Assembly (NCBI GenBank): GCA_963775685.1
Contig: CAVZJV010000014.1
Span: 1,824,001 to 1,888,000 of the forward strand
Direction of reading: 5' to 3'
DNA: 64,000 bases
Origin: Candidatus Bathyarchaeota archaeon
GTDB lineage: Archaea; Thermoproteota; Bathyarchaeia; Bathyarchaeales; Bathycorpusculaceae
In this document: positions 9,574-17,216 of the stretch, in pieces
Layout of the letters: every line of letters begins with the position of its first letter
Numbering within the stretch: the first letter of the stretch is position 1
Program-made: the position numbers and the translations under genes
Notes under the pieces: generated by a model
What the model was told of the DNA's origin: nothing
What the model saw: the letters and a program-made list of their open reading frames with translations, nothing else
Databases searched by the model: none

Positions 9574-11607
9574 ATGTCTAAGCTTGAAACTATTGATCCG
9601 CAGCAGCGTTTCCAAGAATTCTTCAAAAAAGAAAAGTATCGACAAAGAATCGCCCAGTTAGCCATCTCAGGAAAAGGCTCATTAATCATCGATTTTGAAG
9701 AACTCTATGGCTTCGACCAGGCACTTGCAGAGCATCTTCTATGTAAGCCTGAAGAGTACCTGCAACACGCTGGTAAAGGAGCATACGAACAGCTCAGAAT
9801 CGAAGATGCCGAATACGCAGAGAAAACCGAGAAAGTCATCGTCAGAATCGTAAAGCTTCTAGGAAAAGAAGTACTTAGAAAACTCGGCTCAAGACAGATG
9901 AGCAAGCTAATTATGGTGGAAGGCATCGTTGTCAGAGCCACACCAGTTCGCCCGATGGTCCAGATTGCAGCATTCAAATGCAAACGCTGCGGCACCATGA
10001 ACCAAGTAGAGCAAACGGGGCAGTTTTTGAAGGCCCCAGCGGTTTGCGTTGCTCCTGATTGTGGTAGAGATGGACCATTCGAGTTCAGTCAAGAAGATTC
10101 CACTTTTATAGATTCACAGGACCTGCGGTTGCAGGAAAAACCCGAAGACCTCCCTCCAGGACAGCTGCCACGAGTTTTAGCGGTGAAACTTGTCGGCGAC
10201 GAAATCGTGGACGTTGCAAGACCAGGAGACCATGTTTCCATAGTCGGCATTGTACGTGCATTTGCGCCTTCGTTGATGGGTATGGGGAAACTTCGAACCT
10301 TCATCCTGCAATTAGATGCGAACTCCATAGAGGTCCTTGGCAAAGAACCAGAGACTTCCCCGCCAACACCTGAAGAAGAAGCAAAAATTATCCAGCTATC
10401 CAAAGACCCTGCCGTTCACCGCAAAATAATGACCTCTATCGCACCCTCAATCTTCGGTCTTGAGCACATCAAAGAAGCTATTATGTACCTGCTGTTTGGC
10501 GGAGTTTCCAAGACTCTTCCAGACGTAAACGTGAGAGGCGAAATGAACGCGCTGCTCATCGGTGACCCAGGAACCGCAAAATCACAGTTGCTTCAGTATG
10601 TTGCAAGAATCGCGCCAAGAGGTCTATACACTTCAGGCAGAGGAACCACTGCCGCAGGTTTAACCGCAGCAGTCGTCCGAGAGAAAGGTGGAAGCATGAG
10701 CCTTGAAGCTGGTGCACTGGTTCTTGCCGACAAAGGCATCGCATGCATCGACGAAATGGACAAAATGCGTCCCGAAGACCGAGTGGCCATTCATGAAGCC
10801 ATGGAACAGCACACTGTGTCAGTAGCAAAAGGCGGAATAGTAGCGACATTAAACGCGAGAACAGCAGTTCTTGCAGCAGCAAATCCTTCATTAGGCAGGT
10901 ATGAACCAAACCGAACAGTAGCCGAAAACATTTCTCTGCCAGTAACCATCTTGTCACGTTTTGACTTAATCTTTGTCCTCCGAGACGTACCAAACAAGGA
11001 ATCTGACAGTAAAATGTCTAGGCATATACTTGAGATTCATAGAAGAGGAGTCAGCCCCGTTGAAGCACAGGTCGATGCGGAGCTTTTGCGGAAATACGTA
11101 AGTTTTGCCAAGAGCGTCCATCCGGAACTAAGCTTGGAAGCGTTAAACCGCCTAAGTGACTTCTACTTAGCTATGCGTTCCGCAAGCGAAACCGAAGGCT
11201 CACCTGTAGCTATTACTGCACGACAATTGGAGTCACTGGTTCGCGTCGCTGAGGCAAGAGCACGGGTTGCACTACGCAGCGAAGTCTCAGCAGAAGATGC
11301 GGAGGCTGCCATAGCGATTATGAAGCGATCGCTTGAGGAAGTTGGAATCGACATGTCAAGCTATAAAGTTGACATTGACTTAATTATGACTGGCAGACCC
11401 AAGAGCATCCGAGACAGACTACACGTAGTGTTGTCAACGCTTATGGACATGGAGAAGATAACAGGCATTGTAGAGAAAGACGCATTGGTTAATGAGTTGG
11501 AGACCCAGCACAAGATTCCGAGAGGCGAAGTTGAACGTATGATTGGGCAACTACTACGGGAAGGAACGATTTATGAGCCGCGCGAAGGATGCCTAAAGAA
11601 AACATAA
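9574..11607 (+). CDS. mcm: MCM replicative helicase (no intein)
   Basis: Zn finger CKRC..C..DC, GDPGTAKS, CIDEMDKM, SRFD, C-terminal wHTH. Confidence 0.97.
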   Translation: MSKLETIDPQQRFQEFFKKEKYRQRIAQLAISGKGSLIIDFEELYGFDQALAEHLLCKPEEYLQHAGKGAYEQLRIEDAEYAEKTEKVIVRIVKLLGKEVLRKLGSRQMSKLIMVEGIVVRATPVRPMVQIAAFKCKRCGTMNQVEQTGQFLKAPAVCVAPDCGRDGPFEFSQEDSTFIDSQDLRLQEKPEDLPPGQLPRVLAVKLVGDEIVDVARPGDHVSIVGIVRAFAPSLMGMGKLRTFILQLDANSIEVLGKEPETSPPTPEEEAKIIQLSKDPAVHRKIMTSIAPSIFGLEHIKEAIMYLLFGGVSKTLPDVNVRGEMNALLIGDPGTAKSQLLQYVARIAPRGLYTSGRGTTAAGLTAAVVREKGGSMSLEAGALVLADKGIACIDEMDKMRPEDRVAIHEAMEQHTVSVAKGGIVATLNARTAVLAAANPSLGRYEPNRTVAENISLPVTILSRFDLIFVLRDVPNKESDSKMSRHILEIHRRGVSPVEAQVDAELLRKYVSFAKSVHPELSLEALNRLSDFYLAMRSASETEGSPVAITARQLESLVRVAEARARVALRSEVSAEDAEAAIAIMKRSLEEVGIDMSSYKVDIDLIMTGRPKSIRDRLHVVLSTLMDMEKITGIVEKDALVNELETQHKIPRGEVERMIGQLLREGTIYEPREGCLKKT

Positions 11608-11620
11608 GGGAGGATGAGAC

Positions 11621-12709
11621 TTGAAGCCGGTCGTTGTGGTCGCAGGAACTAGACCTGAAATAATCAAGATGGCTCCGATAATTCGAGCACTAAACAAAGC
11701 CAAACTACCAAACATCTTTGTCCTTTGCGGTCAACACTACGATTACAACATGTCTCAACAATTTATCGAAAACCTCGAGCTGGAAATGCCTGACTACGCG
11801 TTGAAAATTGAGGCTTCTTCACCCGGGGCGCAGACTGCTGAGATAATGATGAAGATTGACAAGGTACTTGAGAAATATGAGCCATCCACAGTTTTGGTTG
11901 AAGGCGACACAAACACTGTTCTAGCAGGGGCACTTGCTGCAAATAAACGAACTATCCCTATAGGTCATGTGGAAGCCGGGCTCAGGAGCTTTGACCTTCG
12001 GATGTCCGAAGAACACAACCGCCGCTTAACTGACCACATCTCAGATTACTTATTTGCCCCCACAGAACGCGCAAAAGCCAACCTTCTGAAAGAGAACGTT
12101 TGGGGCAAAATTTACGTCACTGGAAACACAGTCATAGACGCAGTAATCCAGCACTTACCCATCGCTGAAAAGAAATCTACAGTAATGGAACAAATTCCTT
12201 TCGAAGAATTTGTTTTGGCAACGGCGCATCGAGCTGAAAATGTTGATGACTTGGCGTTTCTTCAGTCATTTGTGGAGGTTTTCTCGAATTCGCCCCTTCC
12301 CATTGTTTACCCTATGCATCCCCGAACAAGAAAACGTCTACAAGAAAACAATATGCTTTCACAAATAGAAAAAATGAATAGCGTGTTGATTTTGCCTCCG
12401 TTGGGTTACTTGGATTTCTTGATTTTGATGAAGAACTGCCGCTTAATAATCACTGATTCCGGCGGCATACAGGAGGAAGCAACTGCGCCCGGCATCGGAA
12501 AGAGGGTGTTGGTGATTCGGTTGTCTACAGAAAGGCAAGAAGCAGTTGAAGCGGGTTTTGCCAGGTTGGTTGGAACCGACAAAAACAAAATTTTACAGGC
12601 ATTAAACCAAGCAGTTGAAGCAAAAGAGAATTTGCCTTCAGTTTCACCTTTCGGAGATGGCACAGCAGCCATAAAAACTGTGGATATAATAAAGCAAGAT
12701 TTTGTTTAA
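11621..12709 (+). CDS. wecB: UDP-N-acetylglucosamine 2-epimerase (non-hydrolysing)
   Basis: GTRPEIIKMAP, GQHYD, HVEAGLRS, TDSGGIQEE. Confidence 0.93.
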   Translation: MKPVVVVAGTRPEIIKMAPIIRALNKAKLPNIFVLCGQHYDYNMSQQFIENLELEMPDYALKIEASSPGAQTAEIMMKIDKVLEKYEPSTVLVEGDTNTVLAGALAANKRTIPIGHVEAGLRSFDLRMSEEHNRRLTDHISDYLFAPTERAKANLLKENVWGKIYVTGNTVIDAVIQHLPIAEKKSTVMEQIPFEEFVLATAHRAENVDDLAFLQSFVEVFSNSPLPIVYPMHPRTRKRLQENNMLSQIEKMNSVLILPPLGYLDFLILMKNCRLIITDSGGIQEEATAPGIGKRVLVIRLSTERQEAVEAGFARLVGTDKNKILQALNQAVEAKENLPSVSPFGDGTAAIKTVDIIKQDFV

Positions 12710-13476
12710 GAGATGTAGGTTGTTTTCTTGTCGTCTTGTTTTCTGGTTTCTTCGGCTTGCACAGCACGTTTTTCTTCTATTTGTTGCAGGCGCGTAACCA
12801 TTGTTTCGGCTTTAGCAATTTCTTCGTTTAATCCCGCTAGGTCCAATTCAAAGTTAAACGTTGACTTTAACACTTCCAAAACACTTTTAGCTGCCAGTGG
12901 ATCAGGCAAATAACCACGTGTTTCACCCAGCAAACATAGAGCGTCAATTTTTTTGAATTTCGCCAACCCAAGGATTAATCCTGCAGTACCAACAATTGGG
13001 CTTCCTGAAGCGCTTAATGTTGCTCCGGCTTGGATTGCCGCGTTTAGGACAGCTTGGCTGGTTGCAGCTATGTAAACTTTGGGTTTTTCTGTGGATTCCA
13101 TGCGGTAACCTCCGATGGTTGCGATAGTCTTAACGCCATATTTTTCGCTAAAGTCCAGCATTCTGTCAGCGATCTCGTATTGTCCTTCTATGGTTTGGCT
13201 TTGGCTATCACCAGTGAAGAGGATGATGTCGTTTCCTTTTGGGTTTTGGTAATAGTAGAATGCCCCGCGGAGCAAGCGCACATTACCTTTTTTGTTAACT
13301 AAAACAAAGTAGGGGAAGTGCGGTGAGTAGAGATAGGCGATTTTTTTGGCTTTTAGCTGTTTGATTAGATATCGCAAAGCAATTTTGCCAACCAAGCCTA
13401 AACCTGGAAGACCTTCAATGAGGATGGGACTGTTAGGGTGGATTTCGGCGAATTCTTTGATGTATGTTTCTTTCAT
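12706..13476 (-). CDS. Proteasome assembly chaperone PAC2 family protein
   Basis: LIEGLPGLGLVGK, CLLGETRGYLPDP; conserved position after nop10. Confidence 0.88.
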   Translation of the reverse strand: MKETYIKEFAEIHPNSPILIEGLPGLGLVGKIALRYLIKQLKAKKIAYLYSPHFPYFVLVNKKGNVRLLRGAFYYYQNPKGNDIILFTGDSQSQTIEGQYEIADRMLDFSEKYGVKTIATIGGYRMESTEKPKVYIAATSQAVLNAAIQAGATLSASGSPIVGTAGLILGLAKFKKIDALCLLGETRGYLPDPLAAKSVLEVLKSTFNFELDLAGLNEEIAKAETMVTRLQQIEEKRAVQAEETRKQDDKKTTYIS

Positions 13477-13643
13477 TCTGTTTGAGCGCTCCTTTTCATA
13501 GCCATTCGGTACTTCAGGTATTTATCGTCTGGGGAGAATTTAGGCGGATGAGGAATTCTCACTGCACCACCACAGTAGGGACAACTAGTTTTGTTCAATG
13601 TATATTTTTCGCAGTTTACGCATTTGCGCAATTGCCAAACCAA
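13473..13643 (-). CDS. nop10: H/ACA RNP protein Nop10
   Basis: Below ORF-track cutoff. TTG start, MVWQLRKCVNCEKYTLNKTSCPYCGGAVRIPHPPKFSPDDKYLKYR; TGA overlaps the PAC2 ATG. Confidence 0.92.
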   Translation of the reverse strand: MVWQLRKCVNCEKYTLNKTSCPYCGGAVRIPHPPKFSPDDKYLKYRMAMKRSAQTE

Positions 13644-13698
13644 TCATTTATCCCTTCTAAAACTGCCAAGTCGCCGCTTCCAGCTTGCGCTTAGTCAT
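13644..13698 (-). pseudogene. Deletion scar of translation initiation factor aIF2-alpha (fused N- and C-terminal stubs)
   Basis: Sits in the aIF2-alpha slot between rps27e and nop10. Reads ATG-TKRKLE, then GDL, then GSFRRDK-TGA in shifted frames. Confidence 0.6.
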
Positions 13699-13713
13699 AT
13701 GGGAAGTCATCTT

Positions 13714-13911
13714 TTACTCTAGAACTGCTTGGACGTCACCATTGATTCTTGCTCTTCCACCAGAGGGTTCAGCTAAGGTTTCTCCGCATACATTGCAGAC
13801 TATCTTGTTAACTGCGTTGCTGAAGATAAGTTGTTCATTGCCACACTTTAGGCATTTAACCCTGAGGAAGACACTTTTGGGCTTTGGAATAAGTTTGTTC
13901 CAATTAGACAT
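13714..13911 (-). CDS. rps27e: 30S ribosomal protein S27e
   Basis: PKSVFLRVKCLKCGNEQLIFS..CNVCGETLAEPSGG. Confidence 0.95.
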   Translation of the reverse strand: MSNWNKLIPKPKSVFLRVKCLKCGNEQLIFSNAVNKIVCNVCGETLAEPSGGRARINGDVQAVLE

Positions 13912-13930
13912 ATTTTTCTTCTCCTTAATG

Positions 13931-14206
13931 TTATATTATGGCTAGTTTTCTAAGGCGGATACCATCTTTGTGACGCATGTAATTACAAACTCTACATTTT
14001 AAGCGCAAAGTTTGTTTTTTGGTTGTTTTGGCGAATTCGTGTTGCAATGGATATTTTTGTCCGCCATACCCCTCTTTTTCACGTTCATGGTGTCTTTCGC
14101 CTCTGGCAAGTGCTCGCCGTTTACCTGCCTTGTAGAGGGTTACACTGTGAATCTGATGAACTTTACATTTTGGACAGTAAGTCTTTACTTCTTTGGGAAC
14201 GTTCAC
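13931..14206 (-). CDS. rpl44e: 50S ribosomal protein L44e (eL42)
   Basis: TYCPKCKVH, GYGGQ, KTTKK..LKCRVC. Confidence 0.95.
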   Translation of the reverse strand: MNVPKEVKTYCPKCKVHQIHSVTLYKAGKRRALARGERHHEREKEGYGGQKYPLQHEFAKTTKKQTLRLKCRVCNYMRHKDGIRLRKLAII

Positions 14207-14624
14207 GGTTTCAACCAGCTTTGCATAAAAGAAACATACACATTCTTATACTTTATGACTTTTAAAGCAAAAACCCCTAGCTTTCAATGAAAGGCTTTGT
14301 TTTTTCTTTAATATTAGCAGTGGCAGAAATCTTCCTAACAACAACAACCAACAGCTCGTTCCACAAATTGCTTTCCGTAAACTATCCTTAAATGGGTTGT
14401 AGGCTGGCTGAGCCAAGCTGCTAAAGCTGCAAGAAAAGTACAGGCTGTAAGCTCAAGTTTCATTTCAGGGGGCATAAGCATATTTTTATTGTCCAGAATC
14501 GTTATCGTATGGCTCTGCAGGGTGACGATAGCCTATTGTTAGGTCCTTTGGGTTTCGGTAACTAAATTTATTAACTCAAAGTGCAATGTTTAGCTATACA
14601 ACTCAATGCATGAGGAAGAGGTAT

Positions 14625-15380
14625 ATGTTCAAGCTTAAAGTGTCTGACGCTAAACTCTTAAGAGATATGGCAACTGCCATCTCAATTCTAGTTGACGAGG
14701 CAACCTTCAAAATTGACGCTGAAGGCTTAAAACTCCGTGCCATGGACCCGTCACGTGTTGCCATGATTGATTTTGAATGGCCAAAATCTATATTCCAAGA
14801 ATTCGTGTGCGCTGAGCCAACGAAAATCTGCCTGAATATAAGCGAGTTGCTAAAACTCCTGAAGCGAGCAGGAAAAGAGGAAGCAGTCGAACTCTCCCTT
14901 GATGATAAAACAGGCAAATTACTAGTCGCAATAACTGGAAAATATAGCAGAAACTTTACTATGCCAACGCTTGAAGCCTCTGAAGAAGAAGTCCCAACAC
15001 CAAAAATCACATTCAACGTCAAAGCCAAAACCACAACTCAGGGTTTAAGCCAAGCAATCGAAGACGCCCAACTCGTAAGTGATCACGTAAAAATAGAGGC
15101 TGAACCAGAAAAAATGACGTTGAGCGCTTCAGGTGACTTGATGGGCGCAACCATCATACTCCAAAAAGGCAATGACGCCTTACTCGACTTAGAAGTTAAA
15201 GAGAACGCTAAAGCAACCTTTAGCCTAAGCTACCTATCAGAAATCATAAAAGCAGCTTCAGCAACTTCAGACATCGCAACCCTTGAATTCTCATCCGACA
15301 TGCCCGTTAGAATAGACTTCCAGCAGACAAAAGAGGGAAAGTTAACCTTCTTCTTGGCGCCAAGAATCGAAACAGAATAA
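14625..15380 (+). CDS. pcn: DNA sliding clamp PCNA
   Basis: LRAMDPSRVAMIDF, FSLSYL, LTFFLAPR; ATG 14625 preferred. Confidence 0.95.
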   Translation: MFKLKVSDAKLLRDMATAISILVDEATFKIDAEGLKLRAMDPSRVAMIDFEWPKSIFQEFVCAEPTKICLNISELLKLLKRAGKEEAVELSLDDKTGKLLVAITGKYSRNFTMPTLEASEEEVPTPKITFNVKAKTTTQGLSQAIEDAQLVSDHVKIEAEPEKMTLSASGDLMGATIILQKGNDALLDLEVKENAKATFSLSYLSEIIKAASATSDIATLEFSSDMPVRIDFQQTKEGKLTFFLAPRIETE

Positions 15381-15393
15381 TGAGACGTACACC

Positions 15394-16419
15394 TTGCAGA
15401 TGGAATCGGCACTATCTTCTGAGGATTTTGCCAAATACCCATTTCTAAAGCAAGCATCGAAACAGATAGAAGAACTGCAGTTTACAATAGGGACCTTATC
15501 TTCAGAAAAACCAGTTTTTGATCGCGCCCAAAACCGAATAGAAAAGGCAATCTTGGAAGTTAACACTGGAGAGGCAGTAAGGGACGGAAGGACAGAAATT
15601 TCTTCTTTTGCAGCCGCAATTATTCTGGTTATTGCAACAAAAAATTCGTGGATAAAAAAAAGGTACGCATTGTCTGTGGCAAAAACAGCGCACGCAAAGT
15701 TCCTTTGTGAGAGCAAAGCAAAAATCATGGCTATCGCCCAAGACTTTGATTGGGATATTGGCCAAGGTATCGTGGGCAAAGATTTTCGTGTAGGCTATAA
15801 TATCTACTTGAAAAATGCAGCTCATATGCATGGTTCTGAGTGGAAGCTTATTAACCAAATTATGGATAAGGGCATGGTTTATCTGAACAAAGACAAAGCA
15901 GTTCGACTGCTTCAGGAAGAAGTAAAGAACCGCGTGGAAAAAAGGCTCAATGTTCCAGAACTCAAAAACCTGCCCCAAGAGATAACTTGTAAAGCTGAAG
16001 GTTTAGCGAAATTGGCGCAGGAAATTATGGGACAAGAAATCGAGGAACTCCCTAAAGTTGTTGTCAAAGCAGCTTTTCCCCCATGTATAAACGCCCTCTA
16101 CGCGGATGCAGCCCAAGCCCATCATCTTTCACATATCGGACGTTTCACCCTAACATCTTTTCTAGTAAACATTGGGATAACTCCTGAGGGACTTAATGAG
16201 ATGTTTAAAACTTTCTCAGACTACAACGAACGCTTAACCCGTTACCAAATCGAGCACATTGCTGGAGAACGCGGGTCGGGAACAAAATACACTTGCCCTC
16301 AATGCTCAGTGCTCCAAACGCATGGTGTATGCAAGAACCGCGATAATTTGTGCCATTGGATTTATCACCCGCTACAGTACTATAAAAGAAAGCAAAAGAC
16401 GATGACAAAGGCGAAATGA
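15394..16419 (+). CDS. priL: DNA primase large subunit
   Basis: AKYPFL, FPPCI, HIGRF, TRYQIEHIAG, YTCPQC..C..C Fe-S domain. Confidence 0.92.
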   Translation: MQMESALSSEDFAKYPFLKQASKQIEELQFTIGTLSSEKPVFDRAQNRIEKAILEVNTGEAVRDGRTEISSFAAAIILVIATKNSWIKKRYALSVAKTAHAKFLCESKAKIMAIAQDFDWDIGQGIVGKDFRVGYNIYLKNAAHMHGSEWKLINQIMDKGMVYLNKDKAVRLLQEEVKNRVEKRLNVPELKNLPQEITCKAEGLAKLAQEIMGQEIEELPKVVVKAAFPPCINALYADAAQAHHLSHIGRFTLTSFLVNIGITPEGLNEMFKTFSDYNERLTRYQIEHIAGERGSGTKYTCPQCSVLQTHGVCKNRDNLCHWIYHPLQYYKRKQKTMTKAK

Positions 16420-16499
16420 TTTGTTAACATTTATTAGTTCACTAAACTCTTGTAAGGATGGCAAAATTTTTTATGGCAAATCAGTCAATTGGTAACTCC

Positions 16500-17216
16500 A
16501 TGACAGACTCTGAGGTTGGCGTGATTCTCCCTACTTATGGAGAAGCCGAAAACATCGCAAAACTAATAGACGACATCGAAGACTTGAAGATAGATGCATC
16601 GATTTTGGTCATCGATGATTCAAGCCCAGACGGAACCGCCGAAATCGTAAAGCAAAAACAGAGCCAATACCCAAACATCGTGCTTTATGTAAGACCAAAA
16701 AAAACGGGTTTGGGCACAGCTATAACTGACGGCTTCAAAATATTCTTAACAGCTGAAAAACCGCCAAAATACGTCTTCACAATGGATGCTGATTACTCCC
16801 ATAACCCAAAAGACATCCCCCAACTTTTATCAACTATGATTGATTGTAATTGCGGAATAGTAATCGGTAGCAGATACGTTAGGGGAGGCAAAATAGCAGG
16901 GTGGCCCTTTACTCGAAAAGTAATCAGCAAAACAGCCAACCTAATTGCTAGGGCATCGCTTGGCTTAAAACTGAAGGATTGCACAAGCGGATATCGCTGT
17001 TATTCAACAAAATTCCTCAAAGAAACCATTGGGAACCTACATAGCCATACATATGAAATTCAGATTGAAACTGTCAGACAAGCATCCCTGAGAAATTTCA
17101 ACGTTAAAGAAACACCCATCCTTTTTGTTAACAGAAAACGTGGGAAATCCAAGTTATCATGGACTGAAATCAAAAGCTACTTATCTTATACTATGAAGGC
17201 CGTTTGGCGTTCATAG
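16500..17216 (+). CDS. Polyprenol-phosphate mannose synthase-like GT2 glycosyltransferase
   Basis: ILPTYGEAEN, IDDSSPDGT, MDADYSH, GSRY, DCTSGYR. Confidence 0.88.
   Translation: MTDSEVGVILPTYGEAENIAKLIDDIEDLKIDASILVIDDSSPDGTAEIVKQKQSQYPNIVLYVRPKKTGLGTAITDGFKIFLTAEKPPKYVFTMDADYSHNPKDIPQLLSTMIDCNCGIVIGSRYVRGGKIAGWPFTRKVISKTANLIARASLGLKLKDCTSGYRCYSTKFLKETIGNLHSHTYEIQIETVRQASLRNFNVKETPILFVNRKRGKSKLSWTEIKSYLSYTMKAVWRS

Follow-up and report, generated by a model that had tools for sequence, protein, structure and literature searches.

The rps27e-nop10 spacer

The window analyzed here is a stretch of 64,000 nucleotides (nt) of a Candidatus Bathyarchaeota archaeon (contig CAVZJV010000014.1, positions 1,824,001 to 1,888,000), whose genome is labelled G000 and whose Bathyarchaeia genus is referred to as the genus throughout. 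Its minus strand carries a cluster of genes for two proteins of the ribosome, L44e and S27e, for Nop10 and for a PAC2-family protein, in which the place of the gene for the alpha subunit of archaeal initiation factor 2 (aIF2-alpha) is taken by a spacer of 70 nt. The L44e-S27e-aIF2alpha-Nop10 cluster is nearly universal and is among the most conserved gene arrangements in Archaea. An earlier note, made from the letters of the window alone, had named the conserved neighbors of this operon and had read the spacer as the fused ends of an internally deleted aIF2-alpha gene. The neighbors were all identified as open reading frames (ORFs) with Pfam matches:

13931..14206, minus strand: rpl44e (ribosomal protein L44e), leading the cluster, with GTG as start codon; Pfam Ribosomal_L44, 90.2 bits
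13714..13911, minus strand: rps27e (ribosomal protein S27e), stop TAA at 13716-13714; Pfam Ribosomal_S27e, 71.4 bits
13644..13713, minus strand: spacer of 70 nt, read as the remnant (fused ends) of the operon aIF2-alpha by homology to both ends of intact genes
13473..13643, minus strand: nop10, TTG start at 13643-13641; Pfam Nop10p, 82.6 bits
12706..13476, minus strand: PAC2-family gene; Pfam PAC2, 154.7 bits

The L44e, S27e and Nop10 genes follow each other in the expected order and in a single orientation. An intact aIF2-alpha gene is missing between S27e and Nop10, and the only match of the genome to the aIF2-alpha family PF07541 lies elsewhere. The separation of 70 bp given in the earlier note corresponds to positions 13713-13644 between the TAA of rps27e and the TTG of nop10. 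Its quotation of the minus strand was also exact: ATG ACT AAG CGC AAG CTG GAA runs from 13698 and is followed by GGC GAC TTG, and GGC AGT TTT AGA AGG GAT AAA TGA ends with the TGA at 13646-13644 that abuts the nop10 start. Within the spacer the following elements were distinguished:

13707..13713, minus strand: AAGATGA, a Shine-Dalgarno-like motif that belonged to the former aIF2-alpha gene, with 8 nt between it and the old ATG; intact genes have GAGATGA/GGGATGA in the aligned columns
13666..13698, minus strand: 5' piece of the remnant, with the old ATG at 13698-13696 and what survives of approximately 14 initial codons (in intact relatives MAERKPEWPEAGDL), a small internal stretch being lost; from the alignment
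13644..13665, minus strand: 3' piece of the remnant, consisting of seven final codons followed by the former stop, TGA at 13646-13644; from 56 of 56 references and the alignment
13657..13698, minus strand: present-day mini-ORF, MTKRKLEAATWQF-stop, 13 codons plus TAG, shifted to +1 against the frame of the old 3' end and stopping 13 nt before the nop10 TTG; from the sequence
13653..13658, minus strand: AGAAGG, Shine-Dalgarno-like (5 of 6 positions of AGGAGG), 9 nt before the nop10 TTG and inside TTTAGAAGGGA, whose columns are each at least 85% conserved in the 65 remnants described below

In related genomes an intact gene occupies this place. It starts with MAERKPEWPE(A/V/N)GDLVIAT, ends with GGQG(T/S)FRREK and a stop, and is directly followed by the nop10 start. 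In a multiple alignment (E-INS-i) the columns of the spacer fall under the MAERKPEWPEAGDL codons and the TFRREK-stop codons of the intact genes. The 5' part of the remnant runs to GACTTGG, corresponding to the GDL codons, and is joined straight to CAGTTTTAGAAGGGATAAATGA, which represents the last seven codons and the stop. Local alignments against 56 reference genomes, each represented by the stretch from the rps27e stop through the intact aIF2-alpha gene, placed the 3' 30 nt of the spacer at the extreme gene end in 56/56 cases and the 5' 46 nt inside the first 60 nt of the stretch in 46/56. Mean scores were 9.9 for the 5' part and 17.9 for the 3' part, compared to 6.4 (standard deviation 0.6) and 5.7 (0.95) for shuffled sequences, and in neither case did any of 300 shuffles reach the observed score. 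Local alignment with shuffles and E-INS-i were used for this purpose, as global pairwise alignment to one intact gene, with cheap long gaps, gave spurious blocks for short remnants.

Thus the resemblance to the two protein ends, to which the earlier note had pointed, exceeds chance and is matched by aligned intact genes. A graded series of remnants in relatives, keeping up to 94 codons, links the two states; in G004, 47 N-terminal and about 20 C-terminal codons remain in a spacer of 232 nt. The spacer of the window is therefore homologous to the start as well as the end of the intact orthologue found in this position. No aIF2-alpha domain was found in it, and a tblastn search with aIF2-alpha gave nothing at the spacer. 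The intact gene in relatives and the retention of its two ends alone in the remnants bear out the internal deletion proposed in the earlier note, and the spacer is almost certainly a deletion scar left where the operon copy was removed by internal deletions sparing its two ends.

In principle, a short spacer could also arise in assembly while the real genome carries the intact gene, and the metagenome-type assembly of G000 in 14 contigs gives some room for this. None of the public sequencing runs contains more than 0.11 of the sampled words of the stretch. However, the four other assemblies of the clade of G000 (G082, G085, G095 and G100) have the same short spacer of 70-75 bp, and remnants occur in 65 separate genomes. 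In addition, nop10, spacer and rps27e of a close relative are joined in a DNA contig from a public soil metagenome (X1 record 5; 140 nt, of which 10 are other letters; about 92% identity). Misassembly at the spacer is very unlikely because the four clade assemblies and this contig show the short junction; a collapse of about 730 bp of unique sequence would moreover be an unusual assembly error, and we give this explanation hardly any weight.

The deletion junction, GACTTGG joined to CA(C/G)TTTTAG, is common to the clade of G000 and to G075, G096 and G106, and may involve a GG microhomology. Elsewhere in the 25-genome clade (G037 and the G011 group) more of the gene is retained than in G075, G096 and G106. 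The common junction would reflect a deletion that recurred at a microhomology, a branch placed wrongly or sequence exchanged between lineages.

Two aIF2-alpha copies and repeated loss

In the whole genome of G000 (3.06 Mb, 96.9% complete) the single PF07541 match is located at C14:1483254-1483580 (94.8 bits), on the same contig about 354 kb away from the scar. It sits in a stop-free frame of 263 codons, and the ORF from its ATG encodes 262 amino acids (aa). Both the S1 domain (47.8 bits, cut-off 22) and EIF_2_alpha (93.2 bits, cut-off 22.8) scored above the Pfam cut-offs in this protein. A whole-genome tblastn with the distant protein did not reveal a second aIF2-alpha. Hence the genome-wide search called for in the earlier note returned one intact gene, outside the operon, and the accompanying check of the other subunits found aIF2-beta and aIF2-gamma present with one gene each. 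From its domains and full-length frame the distant paralogue is predicted to be a genuine aIF2-alpha that has replaced the operon copy. The earlier note had left it open whether the factor was relocated, replaced or lost; replacement stands, since the paralogue is the only aIF2-alpha of the genome, and loss is contradicted by the intact 262-aa copy. The dramatic reading, loss of a core initiation factor, does not hold, which makes the case less surprising, as the earlier note itself had foreseen.

An ORF of 125 aa without Pfam match begins 3 nt past the stop of the distant gene (G000:C14, locus L001:1018-1395, minus strand). Of 14 genomes checked, 10 have it in the same position next to the non-operon aIF2-alpha, and G005, G007, G014 and G015 lack it there. 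It may be a co-expressed partner of the distant aIF2-alpha.

A survey of 120 species-level genomes of the genus, searched with PF07541 and the PAC2 protein, revealed aIF2-alpha beside PAC2 only in 25 genomes, beside PAC2 and elsewhere in 29, and elsewhere only in 59, one of which has two such copies. No match was obtained for 7 genomes of 52-88% completeness, and all 73 genomes of at least 90% completeness contain the gene. The locus itself was examined in 119 of the 120 genomes, G103, classed as without operon copy in the survey, being excluded. Distances between the rps27e stop and the nop10 start were bimodal: 65 genomes fall at 59-300 nt, another 54 together with two outgroups fall at 795-812 nt, and none lies in between. 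The longer spacers of the genus contain an intact operon gene of 261-265 aa.

In other families of the order, 11 of 12 sampled genomes have aIF2-alpha, once each and beside PAC2, again with a length of 261-265 aa. The outgroup spacer lengths come from G019 and G023; rps27e of G021 lies on another contig, and in G025 (76% complete) neither aIF2-alpha nor rps27e turned up. The position beside PAC2 in these 11 genomes indicates that the intact arrangement is the ancestral one as judged from gene order, and all operon copies are intact in the basal clade of the locus tree (17 genomes).

In a protein tree of 32 copies, those of the genus are united in one clade (100/100), apart from the nine outgroup genomes, which represent eight other families; nested in this clade on a long stem, the 14 non-operon copies group together (100/99). 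All 69 non-operon copies were recovered as one clade in a tree of 142 rows (Shimodaira-Hasegawa-like approximate likelihood-ratio test, SH-aLRT, 100). Since the non-operon copies are one clade inside the genus, aIF2-alpha was in all likelihood duplicated a single time within this lineage and not imported, a conclusion we hold with little doubt. The presence of two-copy genomes in the basal clade of the locus tree (3/17) places the duplication early relative to the genus. Horizontal transfer from another lineage, with displacement of the native gene, might be suspected from the non-conserved neighborhood of the distant gene, whose flanking genes are common to close relatives only. It is contradicted by the nesting of the non-operon clade among the genus copies, apart from the outgroups, and we consider it extremely improbable.

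Whether the operon copy disappeared once or repeatedly was read from a maximum likelihood tree of the flanking genes (121 rows, 1434 columns, spacer excluded, careful search). On this locus tree the remnant state requires 10 changes, of which at least 7 are forced by well-supported branches; bootstrap trees gave 9-10 changes. The remnant bearers formed one group in none of 200 bootstrap trees, and the approximately unbiased (AU) test rejected a single clade of the 65 bearers (log-likelihood difference 406.5, p 8e-5). As a deleted gene cannot return to the same place, these changes are read as independent losses, and it is highly probable from the tree that the operon copy was lost independently at least seven times in the genus. 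The tree represents 1.4 kb of linked DNA, in which recombination may have played a part, and this weighs against the count. G000 belongs to a clade of five remnant bearers (100/99), and the data allow that this clade shares its loss with a further 25-27 genomes. Presence or absence of the paralogue changes 12 times on the same tree, although incompleteness of bins may be behind some of these changes. All in all, the data point to differential loss of one copy or the other.

Two other treatments were set aside. A quick locus tree was not optimal, as a higher likelihood was reached if the clade of G000 joined the 25-genome remnant clade, whether G061 and G074 were included or not; the 12 remnant-only clades taken from the quick tree are accordingly an upper figure. 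Parsimony on remnant length implied impossible events (length gains and one reversal to an intact gene), and its event counts were not used.

Three individual genomes deviate from the general pattern. In G085 (C8 and C9, loci L154 and L158) two non-operon copies with 93% and 92% identity to that of G000 occur without an operon copy; these may represent two strains in one bin, whose contamination estimate is 6%. G081 (C13, locus L099, 800-nt spacer) has a full-length operon copy in three frame segments with stops, corresponding to two frameshifts about 60 codons apart, and carries the paralogue as well. Decay at an early stage or a faulty assembly would account for this. In G016 (C8:163782-163975) the rps27e match is split in two by an internal TGA and adjoins a 119-nt remnant, reflecting either a frameshifted ribosomal protein gene or an assembly error.

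Remnant evolution and the nop10 start

For 64 remnants the old reading frame was scored; G044, which has lost the 3' motif, was excluded, and the start of G088 was set by hand to the position of the other remnants. Of these, 53 can be read in the old frame without interruption from the old start position to the end of the FRRE codons, 49 of them with ATG, and in 47 of the 53 the stop abuts the nop10 start. The mini-ORFs comprise 14-94 codons. Conserved frames in combination with a freely changing peptide would be the pattern of a leader ORF, and this is what was observed: the frame was kept open across lineages, and the ratio of nonsynonymous to synonymous rates (dN/dS) of the middle codons was 0.33-0.97 in five groups, compared to 0.01-0.22 for rps27e, nop10 and PAC2 in the same genomes. 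A value of 10.99 for the 18-codon group was discarded as noise, as it was based on 8 codons with almost no synonymous change. Remnants of 70-72 nt change at 0.21-0.31 of the third-position rate of PAC2, and those of 120 nt at 0.59-0.66. This suggests that the remnants are unlike freely decaying junk, whereas the peptide, as far as substitution patterns tell, seems hardly constrained.

In the remnants of 72 nt (G001, G012, G002, G038, G122, G113, G123 and G105) the GGCTGGCAGCTT region is nearly invariant, while PAC2 third positions differ by 0.40. Minimum free energy folds of 24 spacers yielded z-scores of -2.6 to +1.0; a small hairpin recurs without a significant z-score, and the folds thus gave no sign of a structured RNA.

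Among 121 genomes, the start codon of nop10 is TTG in 92 and GTG in 19 (111/121 together), and whether an intact gene or a remnant precedes it, this codon abuts or overlaps the upstream stop. A 16S rRNA motif searched for in the genome had no match, and the 3' end of the 16S rRNA, GGATCACCTCCT, was instead located through an Rfam match. By complementarity to this end, both AGAAGG before nop10 and AAGATGA before the old ATG are predicted to pair with the 16S rRNA.

We lean, by a modest degree of confidence, towards reading the remnant as a leader ORF for translational coupling, the peptide of which would be irrelevant. In many descendants of the duplication the operon aIF2-alpha became dispensable and was removed by internal deletions. 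In the proposed course of events, the ends would have been spared as they still worked: the old ribosome-binding site and ATG would start a short ORF, and ribosomes would translate this leader up to the old stop abutting the weak TTG or GTG start of nop10, just 3' of the Shine-Dalgarno-like AGAAGG in the old last codons. Termination would then hand ribosomes over to nop10 by termination-reinitiation coupling and keep the mRNA covered. The tolerated deletions would be those that keep the start signals, the frame, the last approximately 20 nt and the stop at the nop10 start.

According to two studies, in which coupling was measured in Haloferax volcanii and Escherichia coli, termination-reinitiation in archaea needs overlaps or very short gaps (PMC6728339, PMC10666635), and in the latter the upstream gene's last 15 nt were enough in E. 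coli gene pairs. A review cites the proposal that short ORFs may serve solely to deliver ribosomes (PMC12548453). Taken as a whole, the explanation combining deletion scar, replacement by the paralogue, repeated loss and leader ORF appears likely to us.

The most serious competitor is a neutral relic, in which deletions simply stopped short of the neighboring genes and of the ribosome-binding site of nop10, the open frames reflect recent coding ancestry, and nop10 initiates by itself. The dN/dS near 1 and the rate of about 0.6 of third positions in the middles of the 120-nt remnants fit this explanation, as does the closed old frame in 11 of 64 remnants. A simple relic is difficult to reconcile with the nonsense mutations within remnant-only clades, of which there were 0, although the flanking genes' average rate, itself below the neutral rate, predicts approximately 15.6 (P 1.7e-7, a rough expectation from an assumed stop-creating fraction of 0.042 and branch lengths of linked genes). 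The same applies to the length classes, 20 distinct ones in frame and 8 shifted (binomial against 1/3, p 4e-5, the classes being not fully independent).

The starts also argue against neutrality. The old ATG was kept in 58 of 64 remnants, with 3 start-codon hits inside the remnant-only clades compared to approximately 12 expected, and the 5' Shine-Dalgarno-like motif with the start region, useless for the own initiation of nop10, was kept in 65 of 65. Even the eight shifted ORFs, including that of G000, are read in the +1 frame and terminate 12-13 nt ahead of nop10, in seven of them at a TAG exactly 13 nt upstream. We regard a purely neutral relic as rather unlikely, though it deserves to be taken seriously.

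Open frames would be explained equally well if the remnant were translated to prevent transcriptional polarity, i.e. premature termination on untranslated RNA, and not for the handover of ribosomes to nop10. Polarity in archaeal operons with a proposed role of FttA is described in the same review (PMC12548453), and if they were not translated, remnants as long as 300 nt would leave a considerable part of the transcript free of ribosomes. However, the shortest remnants (59-72 nt) are the most conserved, yet a gap of that size seems small for polarity, and the stop held exactly at the nop10 start is not needed for polarity alone. This makes an exclusive role against polarity improbable. A functional micropeptide made of the N- and C-terminal ends of aIF2-alpha is suggested by the ORFs staying open and by the recurring MAERK and FRREK ends. 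Weakly constrained middles, lengths varied by independent deletions, conserved ends coinciding with nucleotide signals (the start region and the Shine-Dalgarno-like motif) and the lack of any surviving aIF2-alpha domain render it very improbable.

Several points weigh against the leader ORF, in addition to the limits just given for the nonsense expectation and the length classes. The mini-ORF of G000 is itself frameshifted, its stop lying upstream of nop10 instead of abutting it, and the old start has become ATA or ACG in six remnants. The 3' motif has been lost in G044. AGAAGG could carry nop10 initiation without coupling and alone explain the conserved 3' end. Reinitiation across gaps of 14-15 nt was gene-specific, 60% compared to less than 20% (PMC10666635). 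Two contigs from RNA libraries (X16 record 17 and X15 record 13) lead from nop10 into sequence matching, by eye, G095-like and G074-like remnants; they belong to relatives, show neither strand nor RNA origin and could be DNA. Finally, many of the genomes are metagenome bins, some with evident indel errors (G079).

With a frameshifted leader whose TAG comes 13 nt early, any coupling in G000 is probably weaker than in most of its relatives. The old stop, written AAATGA, creates an out-of-frame ATG at 13647 that overlaps the nop10 TTG and opens an ORF of 20 codons (window 13585-13647, minus strand). AAATGA is present in all five members of the clade, and this ATG could compete with the nop10 start.

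Relation to known systems

There are precedents for the loss of a paralogue following duplication, for translational coupling and for short ORFs that deliver ribosomes. The cluster itself corresponds to the LSIN cluster of Archaea (L44E-S27E-aIF-2alpha-Nop10), described with its replication-gene neighborhood by Berthon et al. 2008 (PMC2643942). Order, orientation, the COG2047/PAC2 gene after Nop10 and nearby genes for PCNA, the primase large subunit and MCM agree with that description. The difference is the reduction of aIF-2alpha to a 70-nt remnant in G000, a state present in 65 of 119 genomes of the genus. Our literature searches found neither a duplicated aIF2-alpha in Archaea or Bathyarchaeia, nor a break of LSIN of this kind, nor a gene remnant kept as a coupling leader.

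The distribution of the two copies resembles differential (reciprocal) paralogue loss, with one duplication and subsequent loss of either copy by lineage (25, 59 and 29 genomes with operon copy only, non-operon copy only and both; 10 changes for the operon copy and 12 for the paralogue on the locus tree). Unlike in the general case, a single-copy core translation factor in a very conserved cluster is concerned, and an apparently selected remnant is left behind. With termination-reinitiation coupling as treated by Huber et al. 2019 (PMC6728339) and 2023 (PMC10666635), the locus has in common a stop that abuts or overlaps the start and a Shine-Dalgarno-like motif in the last upstream codons; here coupling is deduced from sequence evolution, and the upstream partner is the stump of a former gene.

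Ribosome-delivering short ORFs, as presented in PMC12548453, are likewise short, have an unconstrained peptide and stop at the downstream start. The remnants differ in their traceable origin by parallel in-frame internal deletions of an essential gene, and in that review the words 'remnant' and 'pseudogene' did not occur.

Tentatively, and short of conviction, the genus may be seen as a natural, repeated 'non-polar in-frame deletion' experiment, in which aIF2-alpha would have been cut at least 7 times to an ORF of 14-94 codons with the sole role of delivering ribosomes to nop10. If true, expression of nop10, and of PAC2 behind it, would be obligatorily coupled to upstream translation in these archaea. 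The case illustrates how an essential member of a conserved cluster can exit, by duplication followed by decay of the original copy. This decay would not have been free, and the surviving elements, i.e. start region, open frame, last 20 nt and stop at nop10, could be read as a natural mutagenesis of coupling. As the non-operon copy is the sole copy in 59 genomes, the paralogue might have gained a property of its own, e.g. an aIF2-alpha dosage freed from the ribosomal protein operon. In over half of the genus, checks based on synteny or annotation would report no aIF2-alpha where it is expected, and short leader ORFs of this kind would escape annotation. The proposed coupling also provides a testable prediction for nop10 expression in an uncultured archaeal lineage.

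The wider neighborhood of the cluster (window 9574-17216) contains genes for MCM, a UDP-GlcNAc 2-epimerase, PCNA, the primase large subunit and a family-2 glycosyltransferase (GT2). The replication-translation supercluster, as outlined in PMC2643942, is thus partly kept despite the missing aIF-2alpha member. Downstream in the cluster, the TGA of nop10 and the ATG of PAC2 overlap as ATGA at 13476-13473 on the minus strand, a classic coupling arrangement.

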